Program-made: the position numbers and the translations under genes
Source: a virus
Taxonomy: Duplodnaviria; Heunggongvirae; Uroviricota; Caudoviricetes
DNA: 56,022 bases
IMG/VR virus record: IMGVR_UViG_2534681672_000003
Location: 1-56,022 of that record
Direction: 5' to 3' (one strand)
Shown here: in pieces, positions 18,144-42,508 of the stretch
How the letters are laid out: every line of letters begins with the position of its first letter
How positions within the stretch are numbered: the first letter of the stretch is position 1
Notes under the pieces: model-generated
The model's database searches: none
The model's input: only the letters and a program-made list of their open reading frames with translations
What the model was told of the DNA's origin: nothing

Positions 18144-18220
18144 ACATGAGTCAAATATGAAAGGATGTGAATGATTTGATTACGTTTTAGCTATAGAATT
18201 GAAATGGAAAATCCTTGAAT

Positions 18221-18240: not shown

Positions 18241-18277
18241 TGGATGAAAACCATCACTCATTTAACAAGAGGAATCT

Positions 18278-19183: not shown

Positions 19184-19223
19184 AAGGTCAAATGCTTTTG
19201 ACAAATAAAATCTATCGCCAGTT

Positions 19224-19240
19224 TTACTGGCGACTTTTAA
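19224..19240. terminator. bidirectional hairpin GCCAGT-TTT-ACTGGC between convergent genes
   Basis: Inverted repeat between the DUF2971 stop and the nu1-like stop. Confidence 0.45.
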
Positions 19241-19289
19241 GCAACAAAGAACCACCTAAGCACTCTTCCTACCTATGGTTTCATTTGTT

Positions 19290-19841
19290 TTAACTTCGCT
19301 GATTATCCTTGATATACCTTTCAGCCATATCTGGAATGTTATCTGAGATCTGGTAAGCTCGAATAAATGCTTTACTGACCTCCATCTTAATGAAGTCCTG
19401 ATACCGTTTTCCCATGCCAGGAAACTGTCGACAGATCGCAAGTGGAAGACTATCAATGATTGCTCCAACTTCCCCAGTTAATTTCGACAAGGCATAAGTC
19501 GCAAATGCAGTGTCAATTACCTCACCTGTTTCGCTGGCATTCTTCAGTTCCTGTGCGTCGGCCTGCGCACGCGTAAGTCGATGGCGTTCATACTCAATAG
19601 TCCCTGGCAGGAGATCTGCCTCGCTGGCCTGCCGCAGTTCTTCAACCTCCCGGCGCAGCTTTTCGTTCTCAATTTCAGCATCCCTTTCGGCATACCATTT
19701 TATGACGGCGGCAGAGTCATAAAGCACCTCATTACCCTTGCCACCGCCTCGCAGAACGGGCATTCCCTGCTCCTGCTAGTTCTGAATGGTACGGATACTC
19801 GCACCGAAAATGTCAGCCAGCTGCTTTTTGTTGGCTTCCAT
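19290..19841 (-). pseudogene. nu1-like small terminase subunit paralogue with in-frame TAG at codon 22 (possible restart at Met27)
   Basis: First two-thirds nearly identical at DNA level to helper nu1 (35283-35828) except TGG to TAG at 19776-19778; C-terminal third diverged. Confidence 0.7.
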
Positions 19842-19859
19842 TGTTCATTCCACGGACAA

Positions 19860-20060
19860 AACCAGAGAAAGGAAACGACAGAGGCCAAAAAGCCTGTTTT
19901 TAGCACCTGTCGTTTCCTTTCTTTTTAGGGGGTGTTTTTAATAAAAACATTAAGTTACGGCGAAGAAGAACGGAAACGCCTTAAACAGGAAAATTTTCAC
20001 AAATAGCGAAAAACTGCGCGCCTGACGCCCCGTAGCCTGTCAGATCGCCGGAAAGGACCC
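19860..20060. other. element cos site (cosB-like R-site sequences plus variant cosN at about 20019-20030)
   Basis: Aligns to helper cos at 35838-36030; flanks conserved, 12-nt overhang positions differ. Confidence 0.65.
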
Positions 20061-20086
20061 GCCAGCCAGAGCGGGCCCTAATTTCA

Positions 20087-20470
20087 TCAACCAATCAGCT
20101 TATAGCGACCATCCCGTGCATTGCGGCGTACACGCTCAATCTTGAGGCATAGCGCCGCATCTGGCTTTTTTGGGACAGGTACGCGGCAATATTCAGAAGC
20201 GCGAGGAATATTATTTATCCAGTCGATCACTTCACTTAAATACCAGGCCTTACGCCCTTCCGTAACCTGCACACGCTCCGGGAACTCTCCACTAGCCTCA
20301 AGGTTTAGCAGTGTACGACGACTCAGGGTTGTAATTTCCATCACCTGATTCATATCAACAAGGCGCTCGCTTAAACACATTTTGTCAGCGATAGCTTTTA
20401 ATTCCTCTACAGCTGGATTCGGGTACATCATTTCGGCAATTGGCTTAAGGTCATTGTAATCATTCTGCAT
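20087..20470 (-). CDS. AlpA/Xis-type HTH DNA-binding protein
   Basis: Motif TTLSRRTLLNLEASGEFPERVQVTEGRKAWYLSEVIDWI; AGGGGG RBS; last gene of the capsid operon, ending about 57 bp from cosN. Confidence 0.6.
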   Translation of the reverse strand: MQNDYNDLKPIAEMMYPNPAVEELKAIADKMCLSERLVDMNQVMEITTLSRRTLLNLEASGEFPERVQVTEGRKAWYLSEVIDWINNIPRASEYCRVPVPKKPDAALCLKIERVRRNARDGRYKLIG

Positions 20471-20481
20471 TGTATCCCCCT

Positions 20482-20823
20482 TTACACACGAGCCAGCGGC
20501 TGAACAGAAATACCTGAGCCAACAAACGCTGCAACCTTTACTGACAGTTCTTTAACAGACTCAGGCCAGTTCAGAGCATCAACATTTAAGACACCTGTCT
20601 TATAGACCTGAGCCTGTGTTTTTTTCGCGGTGTCGATTTGTACAGCGGAAACATAAACCGCTTTACCTACGCTCGAACCATCCCATACCACCAGTGCACC
20701 TGTTGCATCTTCCTGCATCAGTGGCGTAAATGCAGGAATTACCCCTTTATTAGCTGAAAATATCCCCAGCGTAGTCACCAGTGCTTCAGTGCCAGCCATG
20801 AGTTCAGTGTAATGAGTAGCCAT
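20482..20823 (-). CDS. head decoration protein, lambda D-like
   Basis: Alignable by eye to helper D (TPLM, WDG, YK-G, WPE, AF-G-IS shared); AGGGGGAG RBS. Confidence 0.7.
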   Translation of the reverse strand: MATHYTELMAGTEALVTTLGIFSANKGVIPAFTPLMQEDATGALVVWDGSSVGKAVYVSAVQIDTAKKTQAQVYKTGVLNVDALNWPESVKELSVKVAAFVGSGISVQPLARV

Positions 20824-20832
20824 TGCTCCCCC

Positions 20833-21873
20833 TTAGCCAATGCGAACGGTAACAAAACGATTGATGCGGGCCGGTATTGGCTGTGGTGCTGAATGTGTCT
20901 GCACATATTCAATAGCCGGATCACCAGGCACAATATAGTTTTTCGGTGCAAGTTCGGCTTTAGTCAGCCCCATTCGGATTAGCTCCGGATCCTGAATACC
21001 GCCATAGGCGACAATCCCCTGAAGAGCCGTATTGCCAAGCACCATCAAATCAGGATCAAGGAAATGTTTTTCTGTTCCGTCCTCGTCGGTATAACGCCCG
21101 CTGTAAACAACAATCGCAACATCGCCCATATACCCTTTAAAACTCACCGAATCACCAAGGTCTTTAAGGGCCGTTTCCAGTTCGGAATTAGAACCACGAC
21201 GGGTATCCAAAGCCTCTTTTATCGCTCTGAATGAACGGTATTTCTTCCATACATTACCACCCATAATGATGATATTAGTGACGCCCTCACTAAATTCTGC
21301 GTAGCTCTCAATATCATCATTTGGATCAAAAGTTTCTTTATCCTTACCTGACCACTCAGTACCGCCAGACTGAGTGATGATATTTTGTGGTTTTATATTC
21401 CAGTCCAGCTCATAACGTTCAATACCATCGCCCTCAATGATATTTTTCCCCGTTGTGATAGCCTGAACAGCAAGCCATTCAATACGTGCACGAATAGCTT
21501 TAGCCTGATTTACAATCGCCTGTTTAACTTTAATATTACGCGCCCCAAAAGCATTGTATTGCTCAGGTGACACACCAGCAGGGCGCACAGCTAACTTATT
21601 TGGATCAATGCTGCTTTTCGGCTTCATATAACCTGGACGAATTGTTTTTGATTCGTATCCCTCATCTCGTGAAACTTTACTGCCCACCATAGGAGAGCAA
21701 AACGCCGCGATCGGGATATTTGGATCGTCGATCGTATCAAGAATAATGTCTCTCGATTCAAACATTACCGAGCGAGTGAAAAACAAACTGGTAAACAACG
21801 CATTTAATTTTTTTTGTACATCTACAGCATTAACCACCTGTACAAGCTGAGTAGGCGAATATAAATCAACCAT
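20833..21873 (-). CDS. major capsid protein, lambda E-like (HK97 fold)
   Basis: 346 aa, alignable over the full length to helper E (ITQSGGTEWS, ALDTRRGSNSELETA, DVAIVVYSG shared); start trimmed to the ATG after AAGAGG. Confidence 0.8.
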   Translation of the reverse strand: MVDLYSPTQLVQVVNAVDVQKKLNALFTSLFFTRSVMFESRDIILDTIDDPNIPIAAFCSPMVGSKVSRDEGYESKTIRPGYMKPKSSIDPNKLAVRPAGVSPEQYNAFGARNIKVKQAIVNQAKAIRARIEWLAVQAITTGKNIIEGDGIERYELDWNIKPQNIITQSGGTEWSGKDKETFDPNDDIESYAEFSEGVTNIIIMGGNVWKKYRSFRAIKEALDTRRGSNSELETALKDLGDSVSFKGYMGDVAIVVYSGRYTDEDGTEKHFLDPDLMVLGNTALQGIVAYGGIQDPELIRMGLTKAELAPKNYIVPGDPAIEYVQTHSAPQPIPARINRFVTVRIG

Positions 21874-22074
21874 ACGCATCCTCTTTGCATTCATTAAAAA
21901 TAATTGTGGATATATGCTATCACCGATATTTGTCATGCGAACACATGCAACCGAGTGCAATGTTGTATAAAGTTTTGGGGTGACAACTTCAGTGCGGACA
22001 ATTAGTGTTAATATCTTCACTCCCTTTGGTCGGGATTTATGTAGCATGCAGGAAAATTTATTTTTTCCGGCCTT

Positions 22075-22792
22075 TTTGTGCACAGAAAACCCCCAGCTAG
22101 GCTGGGGGTTCCGGAAAGCTTTCAGCTTTGAGCCAGTTATTAAAACCCCTTTTGATTTGTTAAAACACTTTGCGGTCTGGCAACTGCAAGTGTCAAACAA
22201 GAAATCAAAAGGGGGTCCCAATGGGGAACGAAAAGAGCTTAGCGCACACCCGATGGAACTGTAAATATCACATAGTTTTTGCGCCAAAATACCGAAGACA
22301 GGTGTTCTACAGAGAGAAGCGTAGAGCAATAGGCAGTATTTTGAGAAAGCTGTGTGAGTGGAAAAGCGTACGGATTCTGGAAGCTGAATGCTGTGCAGAT
22401 CATATCCATATGCTTGTGGAGATCCCGCCCAAAATGAGCGTATCCGGGTTTATGGGATATCTGAAAGGGAAAAGCAGTCTGATGCTTTACGAGCAGTTTG
22501 GTGATTTGAAATTCAAATACAGGAACAGGGAGTTCTGGTGCAGAGGGTACTACGTCGATACAGTGGGTAAGAACACGGCGAAGATACAGGATTACATAAA
22601 GCACCAGCTTGAAGAGGATAAAATGGGAGAGCAGTTATCGATTCCCTATCCGGGCAGCCCGTTTACGGGCCGTAAGTAACGAAGTTGGATGCAAATGTCA
22701 GATCGTGTGCGCCTGTTAGGGCGCGGCTGGTAAGAGAGCCTTATAGGCGCATTTGAAAAACCTCCGGCTATGCCGGAGGATATTTATTTTAT
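22075..22792 (+). mobile_element. IS200 insertion sequence
   Basis: IS200-type TnpA flanked by terminal hairpins (about 22087-22110 and 22771-22789); boundaries approximate. Confidence 0.8.
22221..22679 (+). CDS. tnpA: IS200 transposase TnpA (Y1/HUH)
   Basis: MGNEKSLAHTRWNCKYHIVFAPKYRRQVFY... matches IS200 TnpA as recalled; trimmed to the ATG at 22221. Confidence 0.92.
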   Translation: MGNEKSLAHTRWNCKYHIVFAPKYRRQVFYREKRRAIGSILRKLCEWKSVRILEAECCADHIHMLVEIPPKMSVSGFMGYLKGKSSLMLYEQFGDLKFKYRNREFWCRGYYVDTVGKNTAKIQDYIKHQLEEDKMGEQLSIPYPGSPFTGRK

Positions 22793-22801
22793 TGGCAATA
22801 T

Positions 22802-23251
22802 TTAAAACGGGATATCATCTCCCCATTGCTCATTATCTCCCACTGGTGGCTGGCTTCCTTGCTGATCTGCCTGTTGTTTTGCTCTGTTCAGTGCGTCAGT
22901 AGCCTGCCCCTGTTGGCCTTTATTGCCGCCCGGTCGCACCGATCGCGCACTGATTACGCTGTCTGCGATAACCTGCCAGCCCTGCCGCGTTTCGCCGTTC
23001 TGTCCAGTCCACTGGCTCATCTGCATGTTACCCGCCACGCTCAGGAGTTCGCCTTTGTGATGCTTTGCCAGCGCGTCGGCTTGTCTGCCAAACGCCAGGA
23101 CAGATAACCACATCGTCGCCTGACCGTCATCCGACTGACTGCAGGGCAGTGATACCGCCATACGCGCCAACGTCATGGGGGTGCCCTTGCTGGTCTGTTT
23201 TGTCTGCGGGTCGTCCACCGACCGCCCGTAAACTGATATTTGCGCCGTCAT
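22802..23251 (-). CDS. SSB-like protein with C-terminal DDIPF tip
   Basis: Ends ...NEQWGDDIPF (SSB acidic-tip motif); glycine/glutamine-rich linker; AT-skewed neighbourhood. Confidence 0.5.
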   Translation of the reverse strand: MTAQISVYGRSVDDPQTKQTSKGTPMTLARMAVSLPCSQSDDGQATMWLSVLAFGRQADALAKHHKGELLSVAGNMQMSQWTGQNGETRQGWQVIADSVISARSVRPGGNKGQQGQATDALNRAKQQADQQGSQPPVGDNEQWGDDIPF

Positions 23252-23493
23252 GCGGCCTGCTCTCCGGACTTAATATTGATTGTTGTCACTTCCTCCGCTT
23301 CAGCAATCTCCCGTTCGGTCAGAGTGGCAAAGTTTGCAGCCGCCGTTGTCATGAATGCGCTAATCAGTTCGGGATGTGCTTTCGCGTATCCTTCCCCGGC
23401 GTTGCGGTCGATGATTTTTATCGACACCCTTAACCAGTGTTCCGTCAAATCAAGGGCGTGCGATTGTGATTTTTTTGTGTGCTTCGCTGTCAT
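23248..23493 (-). CDS. hypothetical protein
   Basis: 81-aa ORF, stop overlapping the SSB-like start. Confidence 0.35.
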   Translation of the reverse strand: MTAKHTKKSQSHALDLTEHWLRVSIKIIDRNAGEGYAKAHPELISAFMTTAAANFATLTEREIAEAEEVTTINIKSGEQAA

Positions 23494-23538
23494 AGGCTTT
23501 ATCTCACAGCAGTAAATTAAAATTTTTGCGTTTTAACC

Positions 23539-23770
23539 CTTCACCTGTTCACCTTTTGATATTTTCTCTTTTAATTCATAATGTTAATGGGTGAACAGTT
23601 TCACAAAAACTATTCACCAACTGTTCACCACTGTTCACCCTTGAAGCTCAATAAACAATCAAAAAGGTGAACAGTGAATAGTTTGGTGAACAGTTCATAA
23701 ATAACTGTTCACCCTATAATATACTGATATAAAAGATATTTATGACAGGGTGAACAGTGGTGAACAGTTA
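23539..23770. repeat. replication-origin iterons, about 9 copies of TGTTCACC / GGTGAACAG in both orientations
   Basis: Octamer recalled as the P4 alpha binding site at ori/crr; lies directly downstream of the primase-helicase gene. Confidence 0.7.
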
Positions 23771-23780
23771 TTCCATAAGT

Positions 23781-25601
23781 TTAATTTTTGCTATCGTCAT
23801 TAGTGACCGATACACATGATGGCATCCAGTCTTCTGATTCCTCCGTCAGGGTCACGTTTGAACGCAAACCGTGCTTCGTTTTCCGTTTCATATACTCCCT
23901 GCCATATTCCGCCATTGCCCCCGGCATATCTTTACCGAAGCGCGTCAGTGTTACAGGTTTACCAAACCCATGTGCCCTCATATAAGCCAGATAGGCATGA
24001 TAGAGATACCTGCGTGGGCTGAATGGCACAATTTCAGCATTACCCACTAACAGGCCATCACACATTACCGATGCCATGAGATAACCGCAGAAGTCCACCA
24101 GCGAATCCCCCTCTCGCTTTATCGCCAGTGCTTCTTCAGATTTCTGCTGCTCATATAACAGGCGTCTGGCTTCGTCCTGATCAGCAAACCTTGTAAGCAG
24201 ATGACGAATCACTACCGCCAGCTCACCTTCTATTTTTTCCGCCAGCATCGAATCGCGTTCGTTCTCCGGTACAACTTCCGAAAAATTGAATATCACCCGA
24301 CGACGTGAGATCCCCCCGCTGCGGTCACTGAATGACATGGCGTTATTGTTAACCGCCAGCACTACTGCCGGAATACGCGTTGAATAGGGGGCTTTGTGTT
24401 TCGGGTCAATTGCCACCTTGTCACCGCCTGTAATGGCCTTAATCCCTGCCCCATCACCAGCGTAGCGGGTCATATCCGGCATGATAATCAGCGAAAAGCC
24501 AACCACTAACGCACGTTCCCTTGCATCTTCCAGCGCCTTCATGCTTGCTGATACTGTATTAGCCTTACCCGCCAGCATGGTGCAAATCTCCGCCATCACA
24601 CTTTTACCACTTCCCCCCGGCCCTGTTACCTCAATGAATAACTGCCAGTCGTACCGGTTCGCCAGCACCATGAATAATGCCGCCAGTACGCGATCTGCCT
24701 TGCGGTCATTCTCAGCCACCGAACGGCGCAACCACTTCCAGAAATTCGGCGCATGTGTTGCCAGCGTTTCCCCCTCTGCTGGTGGGCTGAAAGGTAATTC
24801 ACTGGCAATTAACAACCAGTCGTTTTTGTTATGCTCCCGAAAGTTACCAGTTCTGGTATCAAATACCCCGTTACTGAATCCAATCAGGTTACGGGCTGTA
24901 TTCCCCATTACAGGCAAACTTAACTTCATGGTATCTACCGCCGATTTAATAGCGTTCTGCGAATAGCTGATCTCCGCATCAATGAAAATCTGCGCCATAG
25001 CACGCTGTAACTCTTTATCCTGAACCGGCTCCCATACAACGCCGTTGTAATGATGAACGGTGTCAGAGTCGGCATTGATTGCCAGTTCGCCGCCGTAATG
25101 TGCAAGGAGAACTTCACCGCGCTGGCTGGCCCCCATCTGATTCAACGCCAAAGATGAAGCACGCTCGTCATTTTTGCGCTCAGCCTTCTTCACTGGCAGT
25201 TCAATCACCAGACTTTCCCCATGCTCCGCTTCAGCTTTTAGGCCGACAAGGCGCGGAGTCCAGTCTTCAGGCTCTCGATCAACAAAGCTACGGTAACAAC
25301 GTGCTTCCTTTACGCCTGCAATAGCAAGTAATGTCGCAACCTTCGTCAGACTTTTCTCTGCAATCTTTCCGGCACGATAAACACGCACATAATGACGGCC
25401 TTCATCGATAATTTGCATATCATCCAGGTTTTCCAGTTGTTCCGTACCCAGAATGACTGGTGGTGTATCATCTGCTGCAATATGCTTACCTGCCCATTCA
25501 TTCCATTCTTTTGCATGGCTCCAGGCATCACTGCCAGCAAAAATGATGACTTCCGTCATTTTGTCGCGCGGTTGGTATTTTAAGTTCGGAGCACGTTTCA
25601 T
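23781..25601 (-). CDS. replication initiation primase-helicase (P4 alpha-like, P-loop NTPase)
   Basis: Walker A VTGPGGSGKS; 606 aa; GGAGG RBS; adjacent to the iteron origin. Confidence 0.65.
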   Translation of the reverse strand: MKRAPNLKYQPRDKMTEVIIFAGSDAWSHAKEWNEWAGKHIAADDTPPVILGTEQLENLDDMQIIDEGRHYVRVYRAGKIAEKSLTKVATLLAIAGVKEARCYRSFVDREPEDWTPRLVGLKAEAEHGESLVIELPVKKAERKNDERASSLALNQMGASQRGEVLLAHYGGELAINADSDTVHHYNGVVWEPVQDKELQRAMAQIFIDAEISYSQNAIKSAVDTMKLSLPVMGNTARNLIGFSNGVFDTRTGNFREHNKNDWLLIASELPFSPPAEGETLATHAPNFWKWLRRSVAENDRKADRVLAALFMVLANRYDWQLFIEVTGPGGSGKSVMAEICTMLAGKANTVSASMKALEDARERALVVGFSLIIMPDMTRYAGDGAGIKAITGGDKVAIDPKHKAPYSTRIPAVVLAVNNNAMSFSDRSGGISRRRVIFNFSEVVPENERDSMLAEKIEGELAVVIRHLLTRFADQDEARRLLYEQQKSEEALAIKREGDSLVDFCGYLMASVMCDGLLVGNAEIVPFSPRRYLYHAYLAYMRAHGFGKPVTLTRFGKDMPGAMAEYGREYMKRKTKHGLRSNVTLTEESEDWMPSCVSVTNDDSKN

Positions 25602-25885
25602 TTGTTACCTCCGGCAACTAACATTGCCCGAATTTTACGGATATAGCCTGCGGCACGCCTCTGATTATCTGTCTTGCAATTTTTTACCAGAATGAAATCT
25701 CTTTCGAACTGCTGACGCGGCATAACACATTCAAAATCATAACCATCACGCAAATAAGAGACACGACGATCATCAACCGAAATAATCTTTACCCGATAGC
25801 CATAGCTGTCTTTGAAAATATCCCCAAGGCTGATTTTTGAATGAGTTTGACCGCTGGCAATAAAGCCAGAAAATTTATTTTTCAT
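25598..25885 (-). CDS. hypothetical protein (replication operon)
   Basis: 95-aa ORF with ATGA overlap onto the primase start. Confidence 0.4.
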   Translation of the reverse strand: MKNKFSGFIASGQTHSKISLGDIFKDSYGYRVKIISVDDRRVSYLRDGYDFECVMPRQQFERDFILVKNCKTDNQRRAAGYIRKIRAMLVAGGNK

Positions 25886-25888
25886 TTT

Positions 25889-26113
25889 TTATTCTCCGGT
25901 ATAGCTCTGGTCGTGTATTTTTATAGCTTCATCCAGCTCTTTGATGACAGGATCAAGTAACGTAATTAACGCTCCAGCTAAATTAGCATCCCGTTCATCG
26001 TGTTCCGCATTTGTTGTCCCATCAAGCCAGGTTGATAAGATTTCTCGCATATTTTTGCCACAAACGAGCGCGTTTTCAGCATGTGTCAGCACTTTAAAAT
26101 AAAGATCATTCAT
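25889..26113 (-). CDS. hypothetical protein
   Basis: 74-aa ORF in the same operon. Confidence 0.35.
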   Translation of the reverse strand: MNDLYFKVLTHAENALVCGKNMREILSTWLDGTTNAEHDERDANLAGALITLLDPVIKELDEAIKIHDQSYTGE

Positions 26114-26471
26114 GGCACACCTCCTGACGAATACGGGCGGCGAATATCATCACGTAGCCAGTTGGGAATTGCTGGCGGGCTTCCTGTTCGCTGGCGGCCT
26201 CGATGTGTATTACGCGTGGTTGTGCGGTGCTCAGGGCGATAAAACGCCAGATGAAATTGTTTTCGCATTTCTGAATAAACAGCGTGTTTTCTTCACGCCC
26301 TTTCCAGAAAGCCGCAGTATAGCCCATCTCCTTAACCATCTTGCGGGCATCAACCAGCGTGTCAGCGGCAACATGTACCGTAGTTGCTCCATCTGCCATG
26401 CGGTCGTGGTGTAGTGCCAGAAAGGTGTATATAAATTTAGGGTGAGTTTGGGTATGCTGTGTTCCAGCCAT
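26106..26471 (-). CDS. hypothetical protein, first gene of the leftward operon
   Basis: 121 aa from the ATG after a GAGG RBS; the longer ORF-track version runs antisense through the neighbouring gene and was trimmed. Confidence 0.45.
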   Translation of the reverse strand: MAGTQHTQTHPKFIYTFLALHHDRMADGATTVHVAADTLVDARKMVKEMGYTAAFWKGREENTLFIQKCENNFIWRFIALSTAQPRVIHIEAASEQEARQQFPTGYVMIFAARIRQEVCHE

Positions 26472-26554
26472 AATCGTTACCTCGTTTAACGGTTTGGTTA
26501 GAAGCCCGGTTAGTGTTCGCGCACTGCCGGGTTTCGTCGTTTTTATGAATCGAT

Positions 26555-26670
26555 CATTGTGAGATACATAGCGACCATGATGTGAGATATACATTATAAT
26601 GTGGTGATATACATTGCAAGTGTTTTTATATCTCACTTTTGTGTATAGTGATATACACATAACAAATTGG
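26555..26670. promoter_or_regulatory. divergent promoter/operator region with repeated GTGAGATA(T)ACAT and GTGATATACA motifs
   Basis: At least five direct and inverted copies between the divergent operons. Confidence 0.6.
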
Positions 26671-26679
26671 TGATTAACT

Positions 26680-26982
26680 ATGTCTGTATACAAAAATGCA
26701 AAATCGCAAATGACAACGATCAGGGTTCCCCACGATGTTATGGAGGGCATGGAATCCGTAAAACTGGACGGCGAAAGCAACGCCGGATTCATAGTAACCG
26801 CCATGCGCGGTGAGATCGCCCGCCGCCAGGCAGAAGGAAGCGGAGAAAATCCCCTCGTGTCTTCACTGGATGCCTTAGCTAAGGTCGAACAAATCGGCAT
26901 CAAGGCAGCGGAGGAAATCGGGCAACTCGTAGCCGTCGCTCGTGAAGAACTCCAGCGGCGTAAAGCCAAAGAATCTGAATAA
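26680..26982 (+). CDS. putative ribbon-helix-helix (CopG/Arc-like) regulator
   Basis: TTIRVPHDVMEGMESVKL...NAGFIVTAMRGEI fits a strand-helix-helix pattern; sits beside the operator repeats. Confidence 0.4.
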   Translation: MSVYKNAKSQMTTIRVPHDVMEGMESVKLDGESNAGFIVTAMRGEIARRQAEGSGENPLVSSLDALAKVEQIGIKAAEEIGQLVAVAREELQRRKAKESE

Positions 26983-27332
26983 TTACTATCAGCGCCGTGA
27001 TGTGAGTAACTACGGCGCATTGCTATGTAAATACTGGCAATAAACAGAAAAGGTAGTTCTACTCCGAATAATTTTATCTGACACTACTCCTGAACTAACA
27101 TGCGCTTATCTTACAGGATATAAATATAGATCCATAAAATCACGATTAAATAAAGCCGCTCCAAACATAAACCACACCCAACGCTTAACAAGATAGCAAC
27201 AAACAGATAAATAACTTGCAGAAATATTTATCGCAAGGATTATCATTATTAATTACAAATCACTTTACCAAGTCATTCCCCTCTCTTATCATAAAGAGAA
27301 AGTAATAAATAAGTTAAGGGAGTTAGAATACT

Positions 27333-27869
27333 ATGAATCTAAAAAAAATAGCCACAAACATAAAAAACAAGATAATAGAAACATTCAATAAACTTATATT
27401 AGAGGCATCTAAAACCCCCACACAAGATGAAATTAAAATACTTGAGAGAAGAAGTAAAAAGTTTAATTACTCCTTTTTCTCATACGCAGTCACAGGAGCC
27501 ATAATGGTTTTTTGCTCTCAACCATTAATAAAATACGCAAACCCAATGCTTATTTTATTGAGTGGTCTGTTACTGTCTATCATCATTATCCTTCTCAGAA
27601 TGATTTATATTTCACAAGCGAATGCATCATGGACAACCAAAAAACGTTCACATGTACTAGTTCATTTTCTTTCTGCATGTTTCATAGCGTCAACATTGAC
27701 GTTGTTATATCAGGCTTACGATAATAACATCACACACAAATTGTACTGTAAAAATATACAACAACTTATTGAAAAAAGGATAGAAACAGAAAAAAATATC
27801 AGCATATTCAGTGGGATGCAATGCACCCCGGCATATGATTACTCTTTATTTGGATTTAATCTCTTATAA
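27333..27869 (+). CDS. AT-rich membrane protein (cargo, unknown function)
   Basis: 178 aa, hydrophobic segments, very low GC, preceded by about 300 bp of AT-rich DNA. Confidence 0.5.
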   Translation: MNLKKIATNIKNKIIETFNKLILEASKTPTQDEIKILERRSKKFNYSFFSYAVTGAIMVFCSQPLIKYANPMLILLSGLLLSIIIILLRMIYISQANASWTTKKRSHVLVHFLSACFIASTLTLLYQAYDNNITHKLYCKNIQQLIEKRIETEKNISIFSGMQCTPAYDYSLFGFNLL

Positions 27870-27938
27870 AGAATGTTATTACTGATTTGAGTGCAAATTC
27901 TCAAATCAGTAATTCATAATATTTTATTCTGAGATAAT

Positions 27939-28166
27939 TTAAACTACCCACTCACCTCGAATCCATGCCTGCACTTCTGAAAGACGATATGCAACAGCAG
28001 TGGAGCCAATCTTGATCCGCTTAGGAAATTTCCCTTCCTTCTCCAGCTTCCAGCGTGTGCTGTTCGCAAGAGTGGTTAGCTCCCGACATTCTTTCTCACG
28101 GATCATACGATCGATGTTAGGAATGTACTCCAAACCCTTTTTATCAACAATCGCCATTTTTTTCAT
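27939..28166 (-). CDS. alpA: AlpA-family transcriptional regulator/excisionase
   Basis: 75 aa with AlpA-type HTH (LTTLANSTRWKLEKEGKFPKRIKIG); directly downstream of int. Confidence 0.75.
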   Translation of the reverse strand: MKKMAIVDKKGLEYIPNIDRMIREKECRELTTLANSTRWKLEKEGKFPKRIKIGSTAVAYRLSEVQAWIRGEWVV

Positions 28167-28167
28167 G

Positions 28168-29403
28168 TTAACCAGCCTTTTGTTTGAGGATTATCACTTT
28201 TGAATCAGCACCTGCGATGCTATTGAGATATGTAGTCCAGAGTTCCAGAGCATCCAGTTTTTTAGCCATAAACTTACTCCGGTTGTAAACACCTGCCACG
28301 CCAGGTAGCGCATGGCCTAACAGTTGTTCTACTACATAAAATTCAACACCGAGATCACTTAGATGAGTAGATAGCGTTCTTCTAAGGTCGTGTAGTGACC
28401 ATTGTTTTTCATGGCCCAAACGTTTACCGATTTTCCCCCCAATCTTGCTTACGCTTTCTCTAATTCGCAGACTTCCCAGCACATAACCAGTATGTTTTGT
28501 CTCTTCGTGAACATCCGTTACCCACTGTCGTAGAATTTCAGGTACTGGTCTGACGATTTCAACACCAGTTTTTGAGTGATCTTTTGGTACCGTCCAAACC
28601 CAACTTTCGAGATCCCATTCGCTCCATTCAGATAATCGGGCTTCACTCATTCGACATCCAAATACTGTACAAAGCACAAACATTTTTCGCGTGTATTCAG
28701 ACATTAGTTTTAAATCAGGCTCGACAAAAATTGCCTTCCAGAGCTGGCCCAGTTCGGCTTCATCCAGAACCCGATCCCGCTTACCTGCAATCTGCCCCAC
28801 ATCACTCATGCGCAAATCCTTTAAAGCATCACATGTCGCGTACTGGCGTACCCGACAAAAACGAAGAGCTAATTTAGTGTCAGAAAAAACATACGCCGCC
28901 ATAACTGGTGCATTACGTTTAATTCGGTCAAAACAGTCCAGCCATTCATATAGGTGAGTGTCATTTACAGGCAAATGACCGATATAGGGAAAGATATGCT
29001 TTCGAAATCTGCCAAGCGTTACAGCATGAGTTTTACGACGCACCTTACAGTAATTTTCATACCAGTAATTTAGTGCATCCTCCACTGTGACCGGCTTTAA
29101 GCGTTCTTCAGCCTGAATCTTAATCTGGATACGCGGATCACGTTTGTCAGCCAACCAACCACGGCACTCGTCGCGCTTTTCCCTTGCCTGTTTGAGTGAC
29201 ATATCAGGATATTTACCCAACGTTAGCCAGACCGGAGCAGCCCGGCCACCTGCTAACCTGTAGAAGAAAACAAAGCTCACAGCCCCCTTGGTACTCACAC
29301 GAATAGAAAGCCCCTTTCCATCAGCAATGGTGATCTGCTTTTCTCTGGGTTTCCCCAGATATCCTTTAAGCGCTTTGTCGCTCAGTTTGTTCTCGCCAGC
29401 CAT
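28168..29403 (-). CDS. int: tyrosine integrase, P4/CP4-57 family with N-terminal arm-binding domain
   Basis: N-terminus LSDKALKGYLGKPREKQITIADGKGLSIRVSTKG; C-terminal HDLRRT...LLGH...Y catalytic motifs; trimmed to the ATG at 29403. Confidence 0.85.
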   Translation of the reverse strand: MAGENKLSDKALKGYLGKPREKQITIADGKGLSIRVSTKGAVSFVFFYRLAGGRAAPVWLTLGKYPDMSLKQAREKRDECRGWLADKRDPRIQIKIQAEERLKPVTVEDALNYWYENYCKVRRKTHAVTLGRFRKHIFPYIGHLPVNDTHLYEWLDCFDRIKRNAPVMAAYVFSDTKLALRFCRVRQYATCDALKDLRMSDVGQIAGKRDRVLDEAELGQLWKAIFVEPDLKLMSEYTRKMFVLCTVFGCRMSEARLSEWSEWDLESWVWTVPKDHSKTGVEIVRPVPEILRQWVTDVHEETKHTGYVLGSLRIRESVSKIGGKIGKRLGHEKQWSLHDLRRTLSTHLSDLGVEFYVVEQLLGHALPGVAGVYNRSKFMAKKLDALELWTTYLNSIAGADSKVIILKQKAG

Positions 29404-29418
29404 TTTTAGCCCCAAAAA

Positions 29419-29438
29419 GCAATACAAGCTGCAATACA
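29419..29438. promoter_or_regulatory. candidate integrase arm-type site GCAATACAA-GCT-GCAATACA (right arm)
   Basis: Matches the left-arm motif at 18221-18240. Confidence 0.5.
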
Positions 29439-29566
29439 GAGATGATTGCAACACACAGATAACGAGGAAAATTCAGTGAAAGCGCCAGATAAACTTATTC
29501 TTTATTATCAAAAGATTAAGTGTAAAAACCAGCAACTACACGAAAGCCTCAGAAAGCCATGCTAAG

Positions 29567-29576
29567 TGCTTCGGCT
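29567..29576. repeat. right copy of 10-bp direct repeat TGCTTCGGCT
   Basis: Identical to 18134-18143. Confidence 0.75.
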
Positions 29577-29811
29577 TGACATATCCCGGCGTAAATTCAG
29601 AGGTGGAGCCGCCACGGGAACGGATAACCTCACCGGAAACAATCGGCGAAACGTACAGCGCCATGTTTACAAGTCCCGGAATTTGTGAGAGATAGACTTT
29701 CTCCGTAGTGAAGGGATAGCTCTCACGGAAAAAGAGACGCAGAAACAGCGGATCAAACTTAAATTTCTGCTCATTTGCCGCCAGCAGCTGGGCGGTTGTG
29801 TACATCGACAT
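29567..29811 (-). pseudogene. E: major capsid protein E, 5' fragment (MSMYTTAQLL...GYVKPKH)
   Basis: Lambda E N-terminus; frame leaves E sequence right after KPKH at the junction. Confidence 0.9.
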
Positions 29812-29866: not shown

Positions 29867-30199
29867 TTAAACGATGCTGATTGCCGTTCCGGCAAACGCG
29901 GTCCGTTTTTTCGTCTCGTCGCTGGCAGCCTCCGGCCAGAGCACATCCTCATAACGGAACGTGCCGGACTTGTAGAACGTCAGTGTGGTGCTGGTCTGGT
30001 CAGCAGCAACCGCCAGAATGCCAACGGCAGCACCGTCGGTGGTGCCATCCCAAGCAACCAGCTTACGGGTGGAGGTGTCCAGCATCAGCGGGGTCATTGC
30101 AGGCGCTTTCGCACTCAATCCGCCGGGCGCGGTTGCGGTATGAGCCGGGTCACTGTTGCCCAGCGGCTGGTAATGGGTAAAGGTTTCTTTGCTCGTCAT
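29867..30199 (-). CDS. D: head decoration protein D
   Basis: [12 protein letters not shown]... matches lambda D. Confidence 0.95.
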
Positions 30200-30208: not shown

Positions 30209-31581
30209 TTACACTGGTGTGTTCAGCAAATCGTTAACGGCATCAGATGCCGGGTTACCTGCCGCCAGCGGTGTCGGTGCCCCCTGCATCAGACGATCCA
30301 GCGCAGTGTCACTGCGCGCCTGTGCACTCTGTGGTGCTGCGGCCAGAATGCGGCGGGCCGTTTCCACGGTCATACCGGGGGTTTCTGCCAGCACGCGGGC
30401 CTGTTCTTCGCGTCCGTGAGCCTCCTCACAATTGAGGATCCCCATAATGCGGCTGTTTTCTGCCGCAACCGCTGCGGTGATCTGTGCGTTCACGTCCGGC
30501 TGCGCCGCGCTGGCGTTCTCGCCCTCTGTCGCTGACACCACGTCAGTAACGTCAGCCTGCAAAGCAGTGGCTGAAACAGTTGTTGATTGAGTCTCTTTGG
30601 TCATTCGCCCTCCTGAGAGACGGGATTTACGTGCATCCAGTGCCTCACGCATAACGGTGATCGCATCGGTGCTGTTGACAAGTTCATCAGCCAGTCCGGC
30701 ATCAATGGCCTCCTGACCGCTGTACACTGCAGCCTCGGTATCCAGCACAGCCTGCACGGACAGGCCGGTATATGCCGACACCTTCTGCGCAAACATCCGG
30801 CGGGTTGCATCCATCCGGGACTGCAGTGTCTCCCGGACGTCATCCGGAAGATGGCTGTAGGGGTTGCCATCCACCTTATGGCTGCCGCTGTAAATCAGCG
30901 TGATTTCCACGCCCTGTTTCTCCAGCGCAGCACCGTTTGCCATCCACCTTATGGCTGCCGCTGTAAATCAGCGTGATTTCCACGCCCTGTTTCTCCAGCG
31001 CAGCACCGTAATTACTGTGAGCCATCATGACGCCGATGGAGCCTGTCCGGGCGGTCTGCGTGACCAGACGCCGGGAGGCGGCACTGGCAAGCAACTGACC
31101 TGCACTGCAGTTCATGTCGTTGGCAAGCGTCCATACCGGTTTTATGTCACGCACACGGGCGATGATGTCAGCGCAGTCAAATGCCCCCGCCACCATCCCG
31201 CCGGGCGTGTCCATATCGAGCAGAATGCCGTCCACCATCGGATCGCTGGCAGCCTGTTGCAGACGGGCGATAATGCCGTTGTAACCGGTCATCCCCGAGT
31301 ACGGCTGCAGCGCCCGCGTCCGGCTGACCAGCGTGCCGGACACCGGCAGCACGGCGATGCCGTTCATGACCTGATAACTGCGGGCCTGTCGTGGTCCGTC
31401 ATCATCACCGGATAATGCCAGCGTCGCGAGTGCCTCCTGGGCAGTCAGGCTGTCGCCGGACACCGCATCCGTCAGGCGGCTGATCCCAAGCTGGCCTGCA
31501 AGCGCACAAAAGAAAACCCGCGCATAGGCGGGTTCAAGCATCAGCGGCTCATTAAAGGCCATACTGGCAATATGCGGGAGA

Positions 31582-31602
<21 letters not shown>
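30209..31602 (-). pseudogene. C: head protease/scaffold gene C (with nested Nu3), frameshifted by a 73-bp tandem duplication
   Basis: Lambda C sequence is split over two ORF-track frames (30876-31715 and 30209-30943) with AALEKQGVEITLIYSGSHKVDG encoded twice; GTG start after a GGAGGAG RBS. Confidence 0.85.
30864..31009. repeat. perfect 73-bp tandem duplication (2 copies) inside gene C
   Basis: 30864-30936 is repeated at 30937-31009; 73 is not a multiple of 3. Confidence 0.85.
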
Positions 31603-35282
<3,680 letters not shown>

Positions 35283-36821: not shown

Positions 36822-37283
36822 CTATCTGCACTGCTCATTAATATACTTCTGGGTTCCTTCCAGTTGTTTTTGCATAGTGATCAGCCTCTCTCTGAGGGTG
36901 AAATAATCCCGTTCAGCGGTGTCTGCCAGTCGGGGGGAGGCTGCATTATCCACGCCGGAGGCGGTGGTGGCTTCACGCACTGACTGACAGACTGCTTTGA
37001 TGTGCAACCGACGACGACCAGCGGCAACATCATCACGCAGAGCATCATTTTCAGCTTTCGCATTAGCTAACTCCTTCGTGTATTTTTCATCCAGTGCAGC
37101 AACATCACGCTGGCGCATCTGCATGTCAGTAATTGCCGCGTTCGCCAGCTTCAGTTCTCTGGCATTTTTGTCGCGCTGGGCTTTGTAGGTAATGGCGTTA
37201 TCACGGTAATGATTAACAGCCCATGACAGGCAGACGATGATGCAGATAACCAGAGCGGAGATAATCGCGGTTACTCTGTTCAT
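36822..37283 (-). CDS. Rz: i-spanin Rz
   Basis: 153 aa from the ATG at 37283, lambda Rz-like. Confidence 0.92.
36881..37063 (-). CDS. Rz1: o-spanin Rz1 (embedded in Rz, +1 frame)
   Basis: 60 aa with lipobox VVGCTS and proline-rich tract, identical in character to lambda Rz1. Confidence 0.9.
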
Positions 37284-37777
37284 TGCTGACCCCACAAACA
37301 GATTTCACGCTCAATCTCACGACGAGTCATGAGACCTTTCCATTGCTTACCGCCAGCATATGTCCAGCGACGTAGCTGATCACATGCGCCTTTGATATCG
37401 CCCTGGTTTATTTTGCGAAGAAGCGTCGATGTTCTGAAATTGCCAGCGCCCACGTTGTAAACGAACGAGTAAAGAGCGCCGCGCGTTGTTTCCGGTATAT
37501 CAACTTTTATGTACGGGTTAATTTGTCTGGCGACCGTGGCAAGGTCTTTATTCAGGAGGGCTTTGCATTCTGCTTTGGTATACGTTTTACCGAGCATGAT
37601 GTCTTTTCCTGTATGCCCGTGACATACAGTCCATACACCAACAATATCTTTGTATGGTATGTAGCTGACACCCTCCAGACCATCGTTACCACTTGAGCCA
37701 GTGATTAACACTGATGCTATAGCAATTGCTCCGCCACCAATAGCAGCAGCAACGGCTTTTCGTAATGATGGAGGCAT
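37280..37777 (-). CDS. R: SAR endolysin (phage 21 R-type lysozyme)
   Basis: N-terminal signal-anchor-release segment [20 protein letters not shown] and lysozyme core, matching R21 as recalled, not lambda transglycosylase R. Confidence 0.88.
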
Positions 37778-37992
37778 TATTCACCTCTCGCAGCCTTGCG
37801 CTTATCTTCTTTAATCTTGAAATAAAGGTTTGTCAGGTACGTCAGCAAGCCAAATACCAAGCTACCCAGCACACCTATTGCTGCCCACTGTGAGGGCGTG
37901 ACTTTATCGAGCAGCTGTAAAAACCAGTAGCCAGCACTGCCTGCGGAGGTGCCGTAGGCAATGCCCGTTGTTAACTTATCCATGGATTTCAT
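37777..37992 (-). CDS. S: pinholin S (phage 21 S21-type, dual-start MKSM)
   Basis: 71 aa with two TM segments; MKSMDK dual-start motif as in S2171/S2168. Confidence 0.88.
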
Positions 37993-38180
37993 AGCCTCAC
38001 CTCCGCAAATAACGGATGGTGTACACGGTTCGGAACGAAGAGGAAAGGTATAGAAGTTACATTAGCGTAAGGCTTGAACATCTATTCAAAAAGAAAAACG
38101 CCAGCGATTATTCTGGCGTAGCTGAAAGCATCATACAATTATTAAATACGAAAATTACAAAATCATTAAAACGCATCACG

Positions 38181-38921
38181 TTACATCATGTCTTTTTCTA
38201 AAAAAAGTCTTGATGAATATTGATGGGGAGGAACACCAAAATATCTTCTGAAAACACTTACAAAATATGACGTGTTTTCATAACCGCATATCTCAGCAAC
38301 TTTTCCAACAGAATATAAATTGTAGCTTAATAACCTTTCCGCCATCACCATTCGCTCTTCAAGAATTAACTTACTAAATGATAAGCCTTCGTGCTTTAAT
38401 TTTCTTTTTAACAGACTTTCACTCAGATACAGTCTTGAAGATATATCACAAAGTCTCCATGCTGCAGATATATCCGTGTGAATAATAGCCTTAACTTTAC
38501 TTCCTAAACTATTAAGACATCCAAATAAAAAACTTTGCACTATTTTCTCTGAAGATAAGATAGCAAGACATGCAAGTGATATTTGATTTCTAACAAAATC
38601 CACAGTTCTGCCATCACAATTCAAGCATGCAATCAAGTTCTTTAACAATGAAAAATCTTCACATTCCACCATCAAGTATGCCGGATAAAACCTTCTTACA
38701 GAAAAAGGTGAGAGTGTGTTGCTTTTAAAGAAATCATTAACTGTTTTCTCTTCAACATCTACGATCATTACATGATCTATATTTGATGAAAAAAAATCTT
38801 TTAAATTGTAATCAATGAGAACAGCACTTCCTTTTTTAAACAAAATATCTTCTTTACCAATTCGGACATCAAACGAGTTCAACACCAAAATGATAGAACA
38901 TATGTATGGCATATTATCCAC
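38181..38921 (-). CDS. AraC-family transcriptional regulator (AT-rich moron between Q and S)
   Basis: C-terminal AraC HTH (VGKVAEICGYENTSYFVSVFRRYFGVPPHQY); low GC. Confidence 0.8.
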   Translation of the reverse strand: MDNMPYICSIILVLNSFDVRIGKEDILFKKGSAVLIDYNLKDFFSSNIDHVMIVDVEEKTVNDFFKSNTLSPFSVRRFYPAYLMVECEDFSLLKNLIACLNCDGRTVDFVRNQISLACLAILSSEKIVQSFLFGCLNSLGSKVKAIIHTDISAAWRLCDISSRLYLSESLLKRKLKHEGLSFSKLILEERMVMAERLLSYNLYSVGKVAEICGYENTSYFVSVFRRYFGVPPHQYSSRLFLEKDMM

Positions 38922-39263
38922 CTGATATCATTGGGGTTACACCAGGTAAGTATAGGTGGAAAATCAATATTCGCCAGTTCAACAATAAGGAAAATCTCAT
39001 TGCATCACAAGTATAAAATTATGTATTTAACTCACAAAGACAAATTATTAAACCAATCTGTTATATTATATATAGCTGCGTGGAATCATAATATTATATA
39101 TTTTGACTGGCATGTTTACCAACTTTAAGTTGCATCTCAATGGTTTCTTCAGCGTAAACAGAGTTTTTATACAAACTGACACTCTGGGTATCATAGTGTA
39201 GTTTTTACGATTGTAAATATCTTGCATGCAGGAACTCATCCTTTTGGATGATATCGCATACAA

Positions 39264-40223
39264 TTAATTTACCATCAGTCTTAGAGCCAGTTCGTCCGGA
39301 TAGGGAGCGAAGTAATTCTGTGTAAGCAAGTAATCATTAGGATACTCACCCAGATAATGCTTCAGCAGAGTCAACGGCGCAAGAAGAGGTAATGTGCCAG
39401 AACGATAGTTAAGTATAACCTCGCTCAACTCTTTACGCTGGCGTGTACTTAAGTAGTTACTAAAATACCCCTGTATATGCATCAGCACATTCGTGTGATT
39501 TTTACGTGATGCAGGTTTTCTGAGAATCGCCATCAGCTTATCACGATACACCTCAAAGTATGATTCAAGGTCCGCCCACTCGTGTATTGCAGCCACAAAT
39601 GGTCCCATATCTTTATAGCCTGCCTGACTATGCGCCAACAACTGAAGCTTATAACGACTATGAAAAGCTAATAACTCTCTTCTTGATAATTTCTCCTTGT
39701 AAAGGTGATTGAGCTCATGCAAAGCAAAAACTCTTTCAACAAAATTCTCACGAAGCACTGGATCATGTAATCGCCCATCCTCTTCAACCGGTAGCCAGGA
39801 AAACTTTTCCATCAAAGTGCTCGTAAATAGTCCCACTCCATCTTTACGACCTCGATTACCATTTTCATCATAGACACGCACGCGCTCCATGCCACAGCTG
39901 GGAGATTTAGCACAAACCACAAACCCCGATACATCCTTTAATTTGTCCATATAAGAACGACTAAACTCTGTCATTCTCTCTGTCACATCCTCATTCTGGT
40001 CGTGGCTGAAACACATCCGTATATTTCCTTGCGTCGAGCGCACAAGACGTAGAGCAGGACGCGGAACTGGCAGCCCTATAGCCATTTCCGGACATACTGG
40101 TCTGAATGTTACCCATTCCACTAATTTGTCCATTAAAAAGTCAGCTCTTTTGTGACCACCATCAAAACGAACAGCAGAGCCGGCCAAACAACCGCTGATT
40201 CCAATCACAGGTTTTTTTATCAT
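39264..40223 (-). CDS. DUF523/DUF1722-type protein (moron)
   Basis: N-terminal VIGISGCLAGSAVRFDGGHK resembles the DUF523 signature as recalled. Confidence 0.5.
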   Translation of the reverse strand: MIKKPVIGISGCLAGSAVRFDGGHKRADFLMDKLVEWVTFRPVCPEMAIGLPVPRPALRLVRSTQGNIRMCFSHDQNEDVTERMTEFSRSYMDKLKDVSGFVVCAKSPSCGMERVRVYDENGNRGRKDGVGLFTSTLMEKFSWLPVEEDGRLHDPVLRENFVERVFALHELNHLYKEKLSRRELLAFHSRYKLQLLAHSQAGYKDMGPFVAAIHEWADLESYFEVYRDKLMAILRKPASRKNHTNVLMHIQGYFSNYLSTRQRKELSEVILNYRSGTLPLLAPLTLLKHYLGEYPNDYLLTQNYFAPYPDELALRLMVN

Positions 40224-40415
40224 ATTCTCCCCCTTGACTAATTCATTAACACATAAACTGTGTAGTGCACGGAATAAATTGCCTTTCTGGCGTCATCACT
40301 GACAATTTTTCTGTTATAGACTATTCCTAATATAGTATGAAAGTTCTTTAAGTGATCGGTCGTAATCATCTATCTTTCATACTTACTCTCAACTATCAAA
40401 AGTACAGGATTTATT

Positions 40416-40940
40416 ATGAAGTTATGGCCTGTGTTGACTGGCATTGCACTCTCTTTCACTCTTATAGCATGTAAGGCCCCGACACCACCTAAAGGTGTGC
40501 AGCCGATTACAAATTTTGACGCCAACCGCTACCTCGGAAAATGGTATGAAATAGCTCGCCTCGAGAACCGGTTCGAACGTGGTCTGGAACAGGTCAGCGC
40601 TACCTATGGAAAACGGAACGACGGAGGGATTCGTGTACTTAACCGTGGATACGATCCAACGAAAAATAAATGGAGCGAGAGCGAAGGTAAAGCATACTTT
40701 ACTGGAGATACTAAAACTGCAGCGTTGAAGGTTTCGTTTTTTGGCCCCTTCTATGGTGGCTATAATGTAATCAAACTGGATGATGAGTATAAGTATGCTC
40801 TTGTCAGTGGTCCGAACAGAGAATACCTATGGATTCTGGCAAGGACCCCAACTATTCCAGATAAAGTAAAAGCAGACTATGTGCGAACCGCTCAAAAGTT
40901 GGGATTCAATGTCAATGAATTATTATGGGTTAAACAATAA
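40416..40940 (+). CDS. blc: outer-membrane lipocalin Blc-like lipoprotein
   Basis: Lipobox LIAC and lipocalin motif NFDANRYLGKWYEIARL. Confidence 0.85.
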   Translation: MKLWPVLTGIALSFTLIACKAPTPPKGVQPITNFDANRYLGKWYEIARLENRFERGLEQVSATYGKRNDGGIRVLNRGYDPTKNKWSESEGKAYFTGDTKTAALKVSFFGPFYGGYNVIKLDDEYKYALVSGPNREYLWILARTPTIPDKVKADYVRTAQKLGFNVNELLWVKQ

Positions 40941-41095
40941 AATCCCTACCCGAAATAATACTTATTAGAAAAAAACCAGCCTTTGGGGAGGCTGGCTAAA
41001 TCAGGAAACAAGCTGTTATATGATAATAACTACGTTGCGATTCCAACATTTAAAATGTTAGACTAATGAGAATCAGACAGCAACTTTTCCTTTAA

Positions 41096-41488
41096 TTATT
41101 TCGAACAATCAGCATCCATCTCCAATCGGAGATCCAACACCATCAGCATACCCTCCACTACGCCCTCAGCTTTCTGGAGCATCCTGCCAACCCAACAATC
41201 AGATCGCCCATGCTTACGTGCAAGCGCCATAAAAGTCATGCCGCCGACATAATAGTCCACCAATAAATCATGCAAATCGCTGTTGTTCTTTTTCAGACGG
41301 GCCATGCACCCGCAAATGATCATCGCGTCATCGTCACAACATTGCGGGCGAGATTTTACTTTTGAAGGAATTAATCCCTTAAAACCGGCGGCAATGGACG
41401 ACCAGGTCACATCTTCATGATTATTAGCCGCCCACGCTCCCCAACGCTCAAGAACCATCTGAATATCACGCATCAACTTACTCCACAA
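41096..41488 (-). CDS. late-gene antiterminator Q (DLP12 QuuD-like)
   Basis: [26 protein letters not shown]... matches QuuD as recalled. Confidence 0.85.
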
Positions 41489-41558
41489 AACTCAGACCAG
41501 AACGCCAATTACAAGCAAAAATCAACAAAACAGTATTAGTTGATTGTTATCTCTGACT

Positions 41559-41699
41559 TCATACTCCTGCTCCTGTCAGTGTTTTGGCGTAATTCTTCAG
41601 TATTCGGTAATCGGTCAAAACAGAGCCGGGGAAACGATATAAGCGCAGACGCCCCCAGCGGTGGCGAAGAAGTTCTGCCATATTAAACTCAAACATCAT
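41559..41699 (-). CDS. ylcG: YlcG-like small protein
   Basis: 46-aa [28 protein letters not shown]... found by hand below the ORF-track cutoff; start overlaps the rusA stop. Confidence 0.7.
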
Positions 41700-42058
41700 T
41701 CATTCCCCATTTCGGTGATGGTCAGTTCCAGCCTCCCACCTTTGGTAACAGGCATCTTCACAACGCGGTAATCAACGACCTGAGCATCATCCAGCCAGAA
41801 ACCTGCTTTAGTGAGTGCGTCAAAAGCGGCTTTTTGCAGATTATCCAGGTCACGGCTACGGCAATCCGGCATGTGGCACTCAATGCGGATTTTCACAGGC
41901 ATAGCCAGGCCGATATCCAGCATTGCGTTTTTAATGATTCGGGCGACGTTATCGCGGTATGCCTGCCCCTCTGCACTGACGTGCGTGCGCCCGCGATTAT
42001 GGCGGTAATAGCGATTATTGCTCGGAGGCCAGGGTAATGTGATACTGTAGGTATTCAC
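41696..42058 (-). CDS. rusA: Holliday-junction resolvase RusA
   Basis: 120 aa, RusA-like. Confidence 0.9.
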
Positions 42059-42345
42059 GCCTTAATAACCCCCTCTTTCAGCCAGATAACCTGTGTTCTC
42101 GCCATACCTTCCAGCGCGCATTCTTTTGCATATGCAGCATCGACAAAATGTGTGCGGCGGTCGATTTCGTCGTGGCAGGCAGAACATGCAATGGTGGCAA
42201 TCAGGTCTGGCGGTTTGATACCGGTACCGCACAATCCAGCCAGCCGGATATGTGCCAGTACAGACGTTTCAGAATTGCCATTACATACGCCAGGGATTCT
42301 TACCTGGCATTCCCGACCACGCGCTGCTTTTCTCAAATCAGCCAT
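42055..42345 (-). CDS. ybcO: YbcO-like (DUF1364) putative nuclease
   Basis: [23 protein letters not shown]... cysteine-rich; trimmed to the internal ATG. Confidence 0.8.
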
Positions 42346-42508
42346 GACTCCTCCTTGCTGCCAGTCGCAACCATTTTTTATCAACCAAGCTGGCGGTATA
42401 TCCGAGCAGTGTTGGTATTTCGGATGGCTTCAGCTCAGGTTTACGCTTACGACGATTTGGTACTCTGTAGATGTGTCCGTTCATGACACGAATAAGCGGT
42501 GTAGCCAT
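42338..42508 (-). CDS. ninE: NinE-like protein
   Basis: 56-aa [30 protein letters not shown]... found by hand; ATGs overlap neighbouring stops on both sides. Confidence 0.65.
   Translation of the reverse strand: MATPLIRVMNGHIYRVPNRRKRKPELKPSEIPTLLGYTASLVDKKWLRLAARRSHG

Follow-up and report, generated by a model that had tools for sequence, protein, structure and literature searches.

In phage lambda, the head-maturation protease gene C encodes an S49-domain protein, and the scaffold gene Nu3 starts inside it at codon 239. The literature classes C as essential, and its knock-down was reported to bring the EOP below 2e-7 (PMC10695390). Tommasini, Mageeney and Williams (2023) described the helper-embedded satellite (HE-PICI) configuration; that paper gives 201 instances at the site E:Phage_cap_E:80, with a 10-bp identity block, and reports that the type element (NRG857c) was precisely excised about 2 h after mitomycin C induction and that the type HE-PICI strain yielded no recoverable particles (PMC10111431). 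The Lovett laboratory documented that 101-bp tandem repeats are deleted in E. coli at high frequency and without the need for RecA; in their tetA system, two perfect adjacent repeats of about 100 bp inactivate the gene, and the precise loss of one restores it (PMC8378479). The array found here in gene C of a lambda-like prophage also consists of two perfect adjacent repeats that inactivate a gene, but it is natural, chromosomal and has a 73-bp unit.

The window, that is, the whole stretch of 56,022 nucleotides that was analysed, is a lambda-like prophage whose late genes lie on the minus strand. When one copy of the duplicated unit is taken out, the window is collinear with the prophage of E. 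coli SCU-102 (NZ_CP051753.1, 1258473-1202525, reverse strand), with 6 SNPs in 55,949 bp and no other indel. The SCU-102 prophage adjoins tRNA-Arg, between fimZ and ompT, and a full lambdoid gene set is annotated in it. This tRNA-Arg site is the integration site of the DLP12-type cryptic prophage in E. coli K-12, and the likeness to that type extends to emrE, ybcK, rusA, nohD and essD/rrrD/rzpD, all annotated in SCU-102. In the DLP12-type prophage a late gene has become a pseudogene by mutation, as in the present prophage. The present prophage differs in being full length with a complete virion module, in which the only frameshift is the potentially reversible duplication in C. The region of about 36900-47000 holds DLP12-type accessory genes, which the SCU-102 annotation gives as iss/bor, a lipocalin, a YbgA-family protein, an AraC-type regulator, emrE and the ybcK recombinase.

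The genes nu1, A, W, B, D, FI, FII, Z, U, V, G, H, M, L, K, I and J gave one full-length collinear lambda match each, and no hard lesion other than the duplication in C was found among the virion genes. In the original prediction the tail module looked intact, and this is borne out by tail genes that are full length and collinear with those of lambda. The terminase gene A, also full length against lambda, contains an imperfect two-copy tandem repeat of 21 bp at about 34517-34558 (80% matches), which is in frame. Two of the SNPs against SCU-102 (1197 and 1208) are 11 nt apart in the distal tail-fibre gene (1187-2227), a region prone to inter-prophage recombination.

The early half of the prophage is a normal lambdoid mosaic, of which the K-12-propagated phage PhiR34_1 covers 74% at 98.2% identity. 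An xis-like ORF with an HTH_17 domain (54632-55000) overlaps the start of int by about 145 nt, and no more than the first 22 codons are annotated by PGAP, which marks them as a partial pseudogene. We considered this gene, with its 'partial' call and partial HTH_17 match, as a second lesion and rejected it because several isolated, plaque-forming phages, among them Turner, 2G7b, ev243 and the PhiR series, match the xis-int region at 99.8% identity. The xis-like ORF is probably functional and under-annotated.

The head-gene region around the duplication is composed of the following features.

31582-33183, minus strand: portal gene B, intact, 99.8% to lambda B, overlapping the start of C
30876-31601, minus strand: truncated C ORF of 241 aa, with a GTG start at 31601 and a TAA stop at 30878-30876
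30937-31009, minus strand: 73-bp unit, the upstream copy with respect to translation, in the native frame of C (codons 198-222)
30864-30936, minus strand: 73-bp unit, the downstream copy, sharing its frame with the remaining C and Nu3 but not with upstream C
30209-30943, minus strand: junction-created ORF of 244 aa, Met-Ala-Asn followed by C residues 199-439
30209-30814, minus strand: Nu3 scaffold ORF of 201 aa, intact, 96.5% identical to lambda Nu3, its ATG being codon 239 of C
29870-30199, minus strand: head decoration gene D, intact, 98% to lambda D

The two 73-mers at 30864-30936 and 30937-31009 are identical. Tandem Repeats Finder described the whole array, 30864-31009, with a period of 73, 2.0 copies, 100% matches and no indels, and the adjacent exact 73-mer, with a chance expectation of about 4^-73, cannot have arisen by chance. 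The unit covers codons 198-222 of gene C (nt 593-665, minus strand) and departs from phage lambda at one position, and the two-copy junction reads ...GCAGCACCGT followed directly by TTGCCATCC... A tblastn search with lambda C placed residues 1-222 at 31601-30936 and residues 199-439, in another frame, at 30934-30212, so that AALEKQGVEITLIYSGSHKVDG is encoded twice across the array. Both the exact duplication and the double encoding of this peptide had been predicted from the sequence beforehand, and both were confirmed.

The edges of the duplication read g/T...T/a, with zero bases of further repeat at either end, and inspection of the repeat boundaries revealed no microhomology at the junction. 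A search of the ancestral one-copy sequence for direct repeats or microhomology at the duplication endpoints likewise found none. This lack of junction microhomology is somewhat unusual for a duplication made by slippage. The sole feature near the endpoints is a 16-nt quasi-palindrome, CACCGTAATTACTGTG, at 31004-31019, abutting one boundary; it may be relevant to the formation of the duplication. Rfam and promoter/terminator scans of the duplication returned no RNA element and no convincing signal. We also considered that the duplication might be what a HE-PICI att site had left behind within the protease gene, and rejected this since excision by tyrosine recombinases leaves no 73-bp duplications. 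The only protease integration site given in the main text of PMC10111431 is C:CLP_protease:110, with no S49 site.

The intact allele of C is identical to lambda C at 430/439 residues, and the two fragments in the window have 97-99% protein identity to it. As in lambda, the GTG start of C overlaps the portal gene B, the product has an S49 domain with S166 at the position of the SppA nucleophile, and Nu3 starts at codon 239; the 439-codon ORF, in contrast, is interrupted here by the duplicated nt 593-665. As 73 is not divisible by 3, the reading frame breaks off after residue 221, and the truncated product is made of residues 1-221 and 20 out-of-frame residues (KRCCAGETGRGNHADLQRQP). The 241-aa truncated protein is the only one possible from the C start, which supports the original prediction that the frameshift precludes full-length C.

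In the intact allele, Pfam Peptidase_S49 covers residues 150-298 with 148.5 bits (gathering cut-off 24.9). Both fragments in the window pass the S49 gathering score, each with about half of the profile, and the truncated C covers profile positions 3-74 of 154 only. The catalytic residues of C were placed by alignment to SppA structures. S166 was aligned with the Ser in the MAASGG motif found in SppA of both B. subtilis and E. coli, and K218, a candidate general base, with the Lys in the GTYKSAVEPF motif of E. coli SppA. The Ser and Lys of these motifs are the catalytic residues of SppA. Both S166 and K218 lie upstream of the break and are kept in the 241-aa product, and the losses are the rest of the S49 fold (222-298) and the entire Nu3-identical C-terminal domain. 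As only half of the S49 fold is kept and the Nu3-identical domain is gone, the truncated protease would be inactive and would lack targeting to procapsids. Given that C is essential in lambda, infectious heads are predicted to be absent for the prophage as well as for the satellite embedded in it. Gene C of this prophage is a member of the lambda-type C/Nu3 family by descent and a pseudogene by structure.

The start codon of Nu3 lies 49 nt past the duplication, and the 40 nt 5' of this ATG are identical to lambda. As the initiation region of Nu3 is untouched and late transcription in lambda is Q-antiterminated, Nu3, D and the downstream late genes are expected to be still expressed. The earlier suggestion that Nu3 might still be translated from its internal start is supported by the intact ORF and by this initiation region. 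Upstream of Nu3, the ATG of the junction-created 244-aa ORF directly abuts an SD-like TAAGGTGG, with a spacing near zero. An SD directly abutting the ATG is too near for efficient initiation. Gene callers picked the GTG at 30910 over this ATG, giving a product of 233 aa, and no record of the ATG-initiated 244-aa product was found in the protein collection. A C-terminal fragment of 233 or 244 aa, which is without the catalytic Ser, might be made at a low level.

The major capsid gene E lies downstream of D and is split in the window into two parts, which flank the satellite.

29567-29811, minus strand: 5' part of gene E (lambda E nt 1-245), ending in the 10-bp att identity block AGCCGAAGCA at 29576-29567
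18144-29566, minus strand: helper-embedded satellite (HE-PICI) Eco112.11.E_Phage_cap_E_80, 11,433 bp including one att copy
17353-18143, minus strand: 3' part of gene E (lambda E nt 236-1026), starting with the second copy of AGCCGAAGCA at 18143-18134

The copies of AGCCGAAGCA correspond to lambda E nt 236-245 (codons 79-82), and both E fragments are without further lesions. When they were joined in silico at this block, a 1,026-nt ORF was obtained, encoding a 341-aa E protein with 338/341 residues as in lambda E. The inserted element has the features of the HE-PICI site group E:Phage_cap_E:80, with a lambda-E cognate near codon 80 and the 10-bp identity block. It encodes a tyrosine integrase (28168-29403), an adjoining AlpA (PF05930), an Icd-like protein, a D5-type primase (23781-25601), an SSB, IS200C, an E-like capsid protein, a D-like decoration protein and a nu1-like terS pseudogene. 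The int, alpA and primase genes occupy the minus strand and run in the same direction as the late operon of the helper, with int and alpA at the upstream end. The E-like capsid gene (20836-21870) encodes a protein 43% identical to lambda E, and the D-like decoration gene is at 20485-20826. The nu1-like small terminase (19290-19841) is 72% identical to lambda Nu1 and has an internal stop, and it is a pseudogene in the SCU-102 annotation. IS200C occupies 22088-22679, with tnpA at about 22221-22679 and the Rfam STnc490 sRNA at 22088-22211. This element holds a cluster of three (22367, 22448 and 22562) of the six SNPs against SCU-102, which suggests either that IS200 copies underwent gene conversion or that a short-read assembly blended their consensus.

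This satellite has already been catalogued. Supplementary File 1 of PMC10111431 lists it as Eco112.11.E_Phage_cap_E_80 (AEZL02000017.1/192270-180838), with the helper Eco112.58.R and the att sequence agccgaagca. The element in the window agrees with the catalogued one in its size of 11,433 bp, its site, the block agccgaagca, the order int-alpA...primase...capsid and the late-operon orientation. It is the context of the gene C duplication and not the finding, and the duplication would make the helper Eco112.58.R defective. The available text and supplement of PMC10111431 contain no mention of the duplication. Both E halves are marked as pseudogenes by PGAP in SCU-102, and the original prediction counted the split E together with C as a double inactivation of the head module. 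This part of the prediction did not hold, as the split is due to a HE-PICI insert and excision at AGCCGAAGCA would restore the 341-aa E. An intact E on joining at the att repeat, and membership of a catalogued class with demonstrated excision, indicate that the interruption of E would be programmed and reversible, and not decay.

The 241-aa truncated product is EIH13597.1 of E. coli 97.0259, and the exact product occurs on 10 contigs, compared with 435 contigs that carry the intact form of the same allele. The duplication was confirmed in three NCBI assemblies from different submitters, GCA_000194235.2 (E. coli 97.0259), GCA_045954045.1 and GCA_902841845.1. An identical 73-bp, 2.0-copy array is present in AEZL02000017.1 (the 575-kb contig of GCA_000194235.2) and in JBICFQ010000029.1 (GCA_045954045.1), and CADGLN010000082.1 (GCA_902841845.1) agrees with the window at every base of the array, with 2 private SNPs outside it in 17.8 kb. 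No difference separates the 97.0259 contig from the window over 20.7 kb, and the two share 3 of the SNPs by which the window departs from SCU-102. The window thus most probably derives from 97.0259 or a clone of it. A literature search for strain 97.0259 gave no relevant paper.

SCU-102 carries gene C once, so there is no paralogue to confuse an assembler. A BLAST search (E-value limit 1e-20) found no contiguous junction in 5,426 complete E. coli genomes, in which the best matches covered 1,434 bp of the 1,507-bp query, as expected for the single-copy form. All 80 phage records covering C are single-copy as well, and an exact junction scan of species-representative genomes, IMG/VR and JGI metagenome contigs gave no match. 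Only one-copy and two-copy states were observed, the latter restricted to near-identical prophages. It had been proposed beforehand to look for collapse of the repeat in independent data and for the single-copy sequence in related prophages; at least three independent assemblies keep the two copies, and the close relatives among the complete genomes and phage records have one. Judged at the level of assemblies, the duplication appears to be a real allele that is inherited in a small E. coli clade, and its distribution points to a recent and rare event. The near-identical flanks suggest a single origin.

Several other explanations of these data have to be weighed. An untrimmed join of contig ends that overlap by one k-mer length would leave exactly 2.0 copies without microhomology, as found here, and the absence of the junction from all complete genomes searched is also what such an artefact would give. 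The array is nevertheless identical at 73 bp in at least three assemblies of different submitters, one of them with its own SNPs, and its product is on 10 contigs. The single C of SCU-102 leaves no paralogue to tangle an assembly graph, and no other indel occurs across 56 kb. We consider an artefact very improbable. Progressive decay, the view of the original prediction, supposes that E was already destroyed and that C then drifted to a pseudogene under relaxed selection. The physical interruption of E, the PGAP pseudogene calls for its two halves in SCU-102 and the failure to recover particles from the type HE-PICI strain (PMC10111431) would fit this view. The E halves, however, are free of lesions and rejoin to a perfect 341-aa ORF at the 10-bp att repeat, every other virion gene is intact, and the insert belongs to a catalogued class with 201 instances at the site, whose type element was excised precisely and in dependence on induction (PMC10111431). 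We therefore consider decay very unlikely.

A selected, reversible switch is very unlikely. It would keep particle production in a heritable OFF state, turned ON by repeat collapse in a subpopulation, as bet-hedging for the composite of helper and satellite or for the host; most cells of the clade would then be without heads, rare revertants would regain phage and satellite particles, and the array would be kept by selection and not by drift. The instability of perfect tandem repeats of about this size (PMC8378479) and the presence of both one-copy and two-copy states among near-identical prophages agree with such a switch. Yet the array is confined to one small clade (about 10 contigs against 435 intact), shows no sign of recurrent independent origin or of more than two copies, and as a lone two-copy array is unlike known contingency loci in build; moreover, inactivation of C leaves host lysis unprevented, with no obvious host benefit. 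It is also conceivable, though highly improbable, that the lesion is phenotypically silent, with the N-fragment (1-221) and a C-fragment (199/207-439, from the new ATG or GTG) reassembling non-covalently into an active, procapsid-targeted protease. The fragments overlap by 23 residues and jointly contain all C residues, and SD-like sequences are located 5' of both candidate restart codons. Against this, the break is mid-way through the compact S49 fold, the SD spacing at the candidate ATG is about zero, the 244-aa product is absent from the protein collection, and the 233-aa product is a gene-caller prediction only.

We consider it very probable that the allele is a spontaneous and recent 73-bp duplication in C that is inherited in the clade, disables the protease, can revert by collapse and is neutral to the host. 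According to this spontaneous-duplication reading, the tandem duplication would have arisen in C, the S49 protease gene, in a lambda-like prophage located at tRNA-Arg (the DLP12 site), and a small clade of E. coli with 97.0259 among its members would have inherited it. Read from its own start, C would run off-frame after residue 221 and end at a stop 20 codons on. It is predicted that neither the prophage nor the satellite inside its capsid gene forms infectious heads, and that induction, lysis and tail synthesis remain intact. The mutation would most likely be neutral to the host and fixed by drift. Given how tandem repeats are known to behave, the array should lose one copy at a measurable rate; collapse of the perfect 73-bp repeats would restore C exactly and give rare revertant cells. 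By this analogy, the lesion in C is likely not permanent but revertible by repeat collapse.

The duplication in C is an ordinary, lineage-restricted loss-of-function mutation, and its satellite context is already published. As a single finding it has small weight, being another frameshift in a prophage gene. The view of the locus is corrected to a complete lambdoid helper with a published embedded satellite and one potentially reversible lesion in an essential head gene. This suggests a caution for calls of prophage completeness, as the splitting of a capsid gene can be programmed and the real knockout can be an inconspicuous duplication inside another gene. Strain 97.0259 with two copies and SCU-102 with one copy, 6 SNPs apart across the prophage, constitute a natural near-isogenic pair, and this pair could show whether a HE-PICI with its own capsid and decoration genes still needs the protease of its helper.
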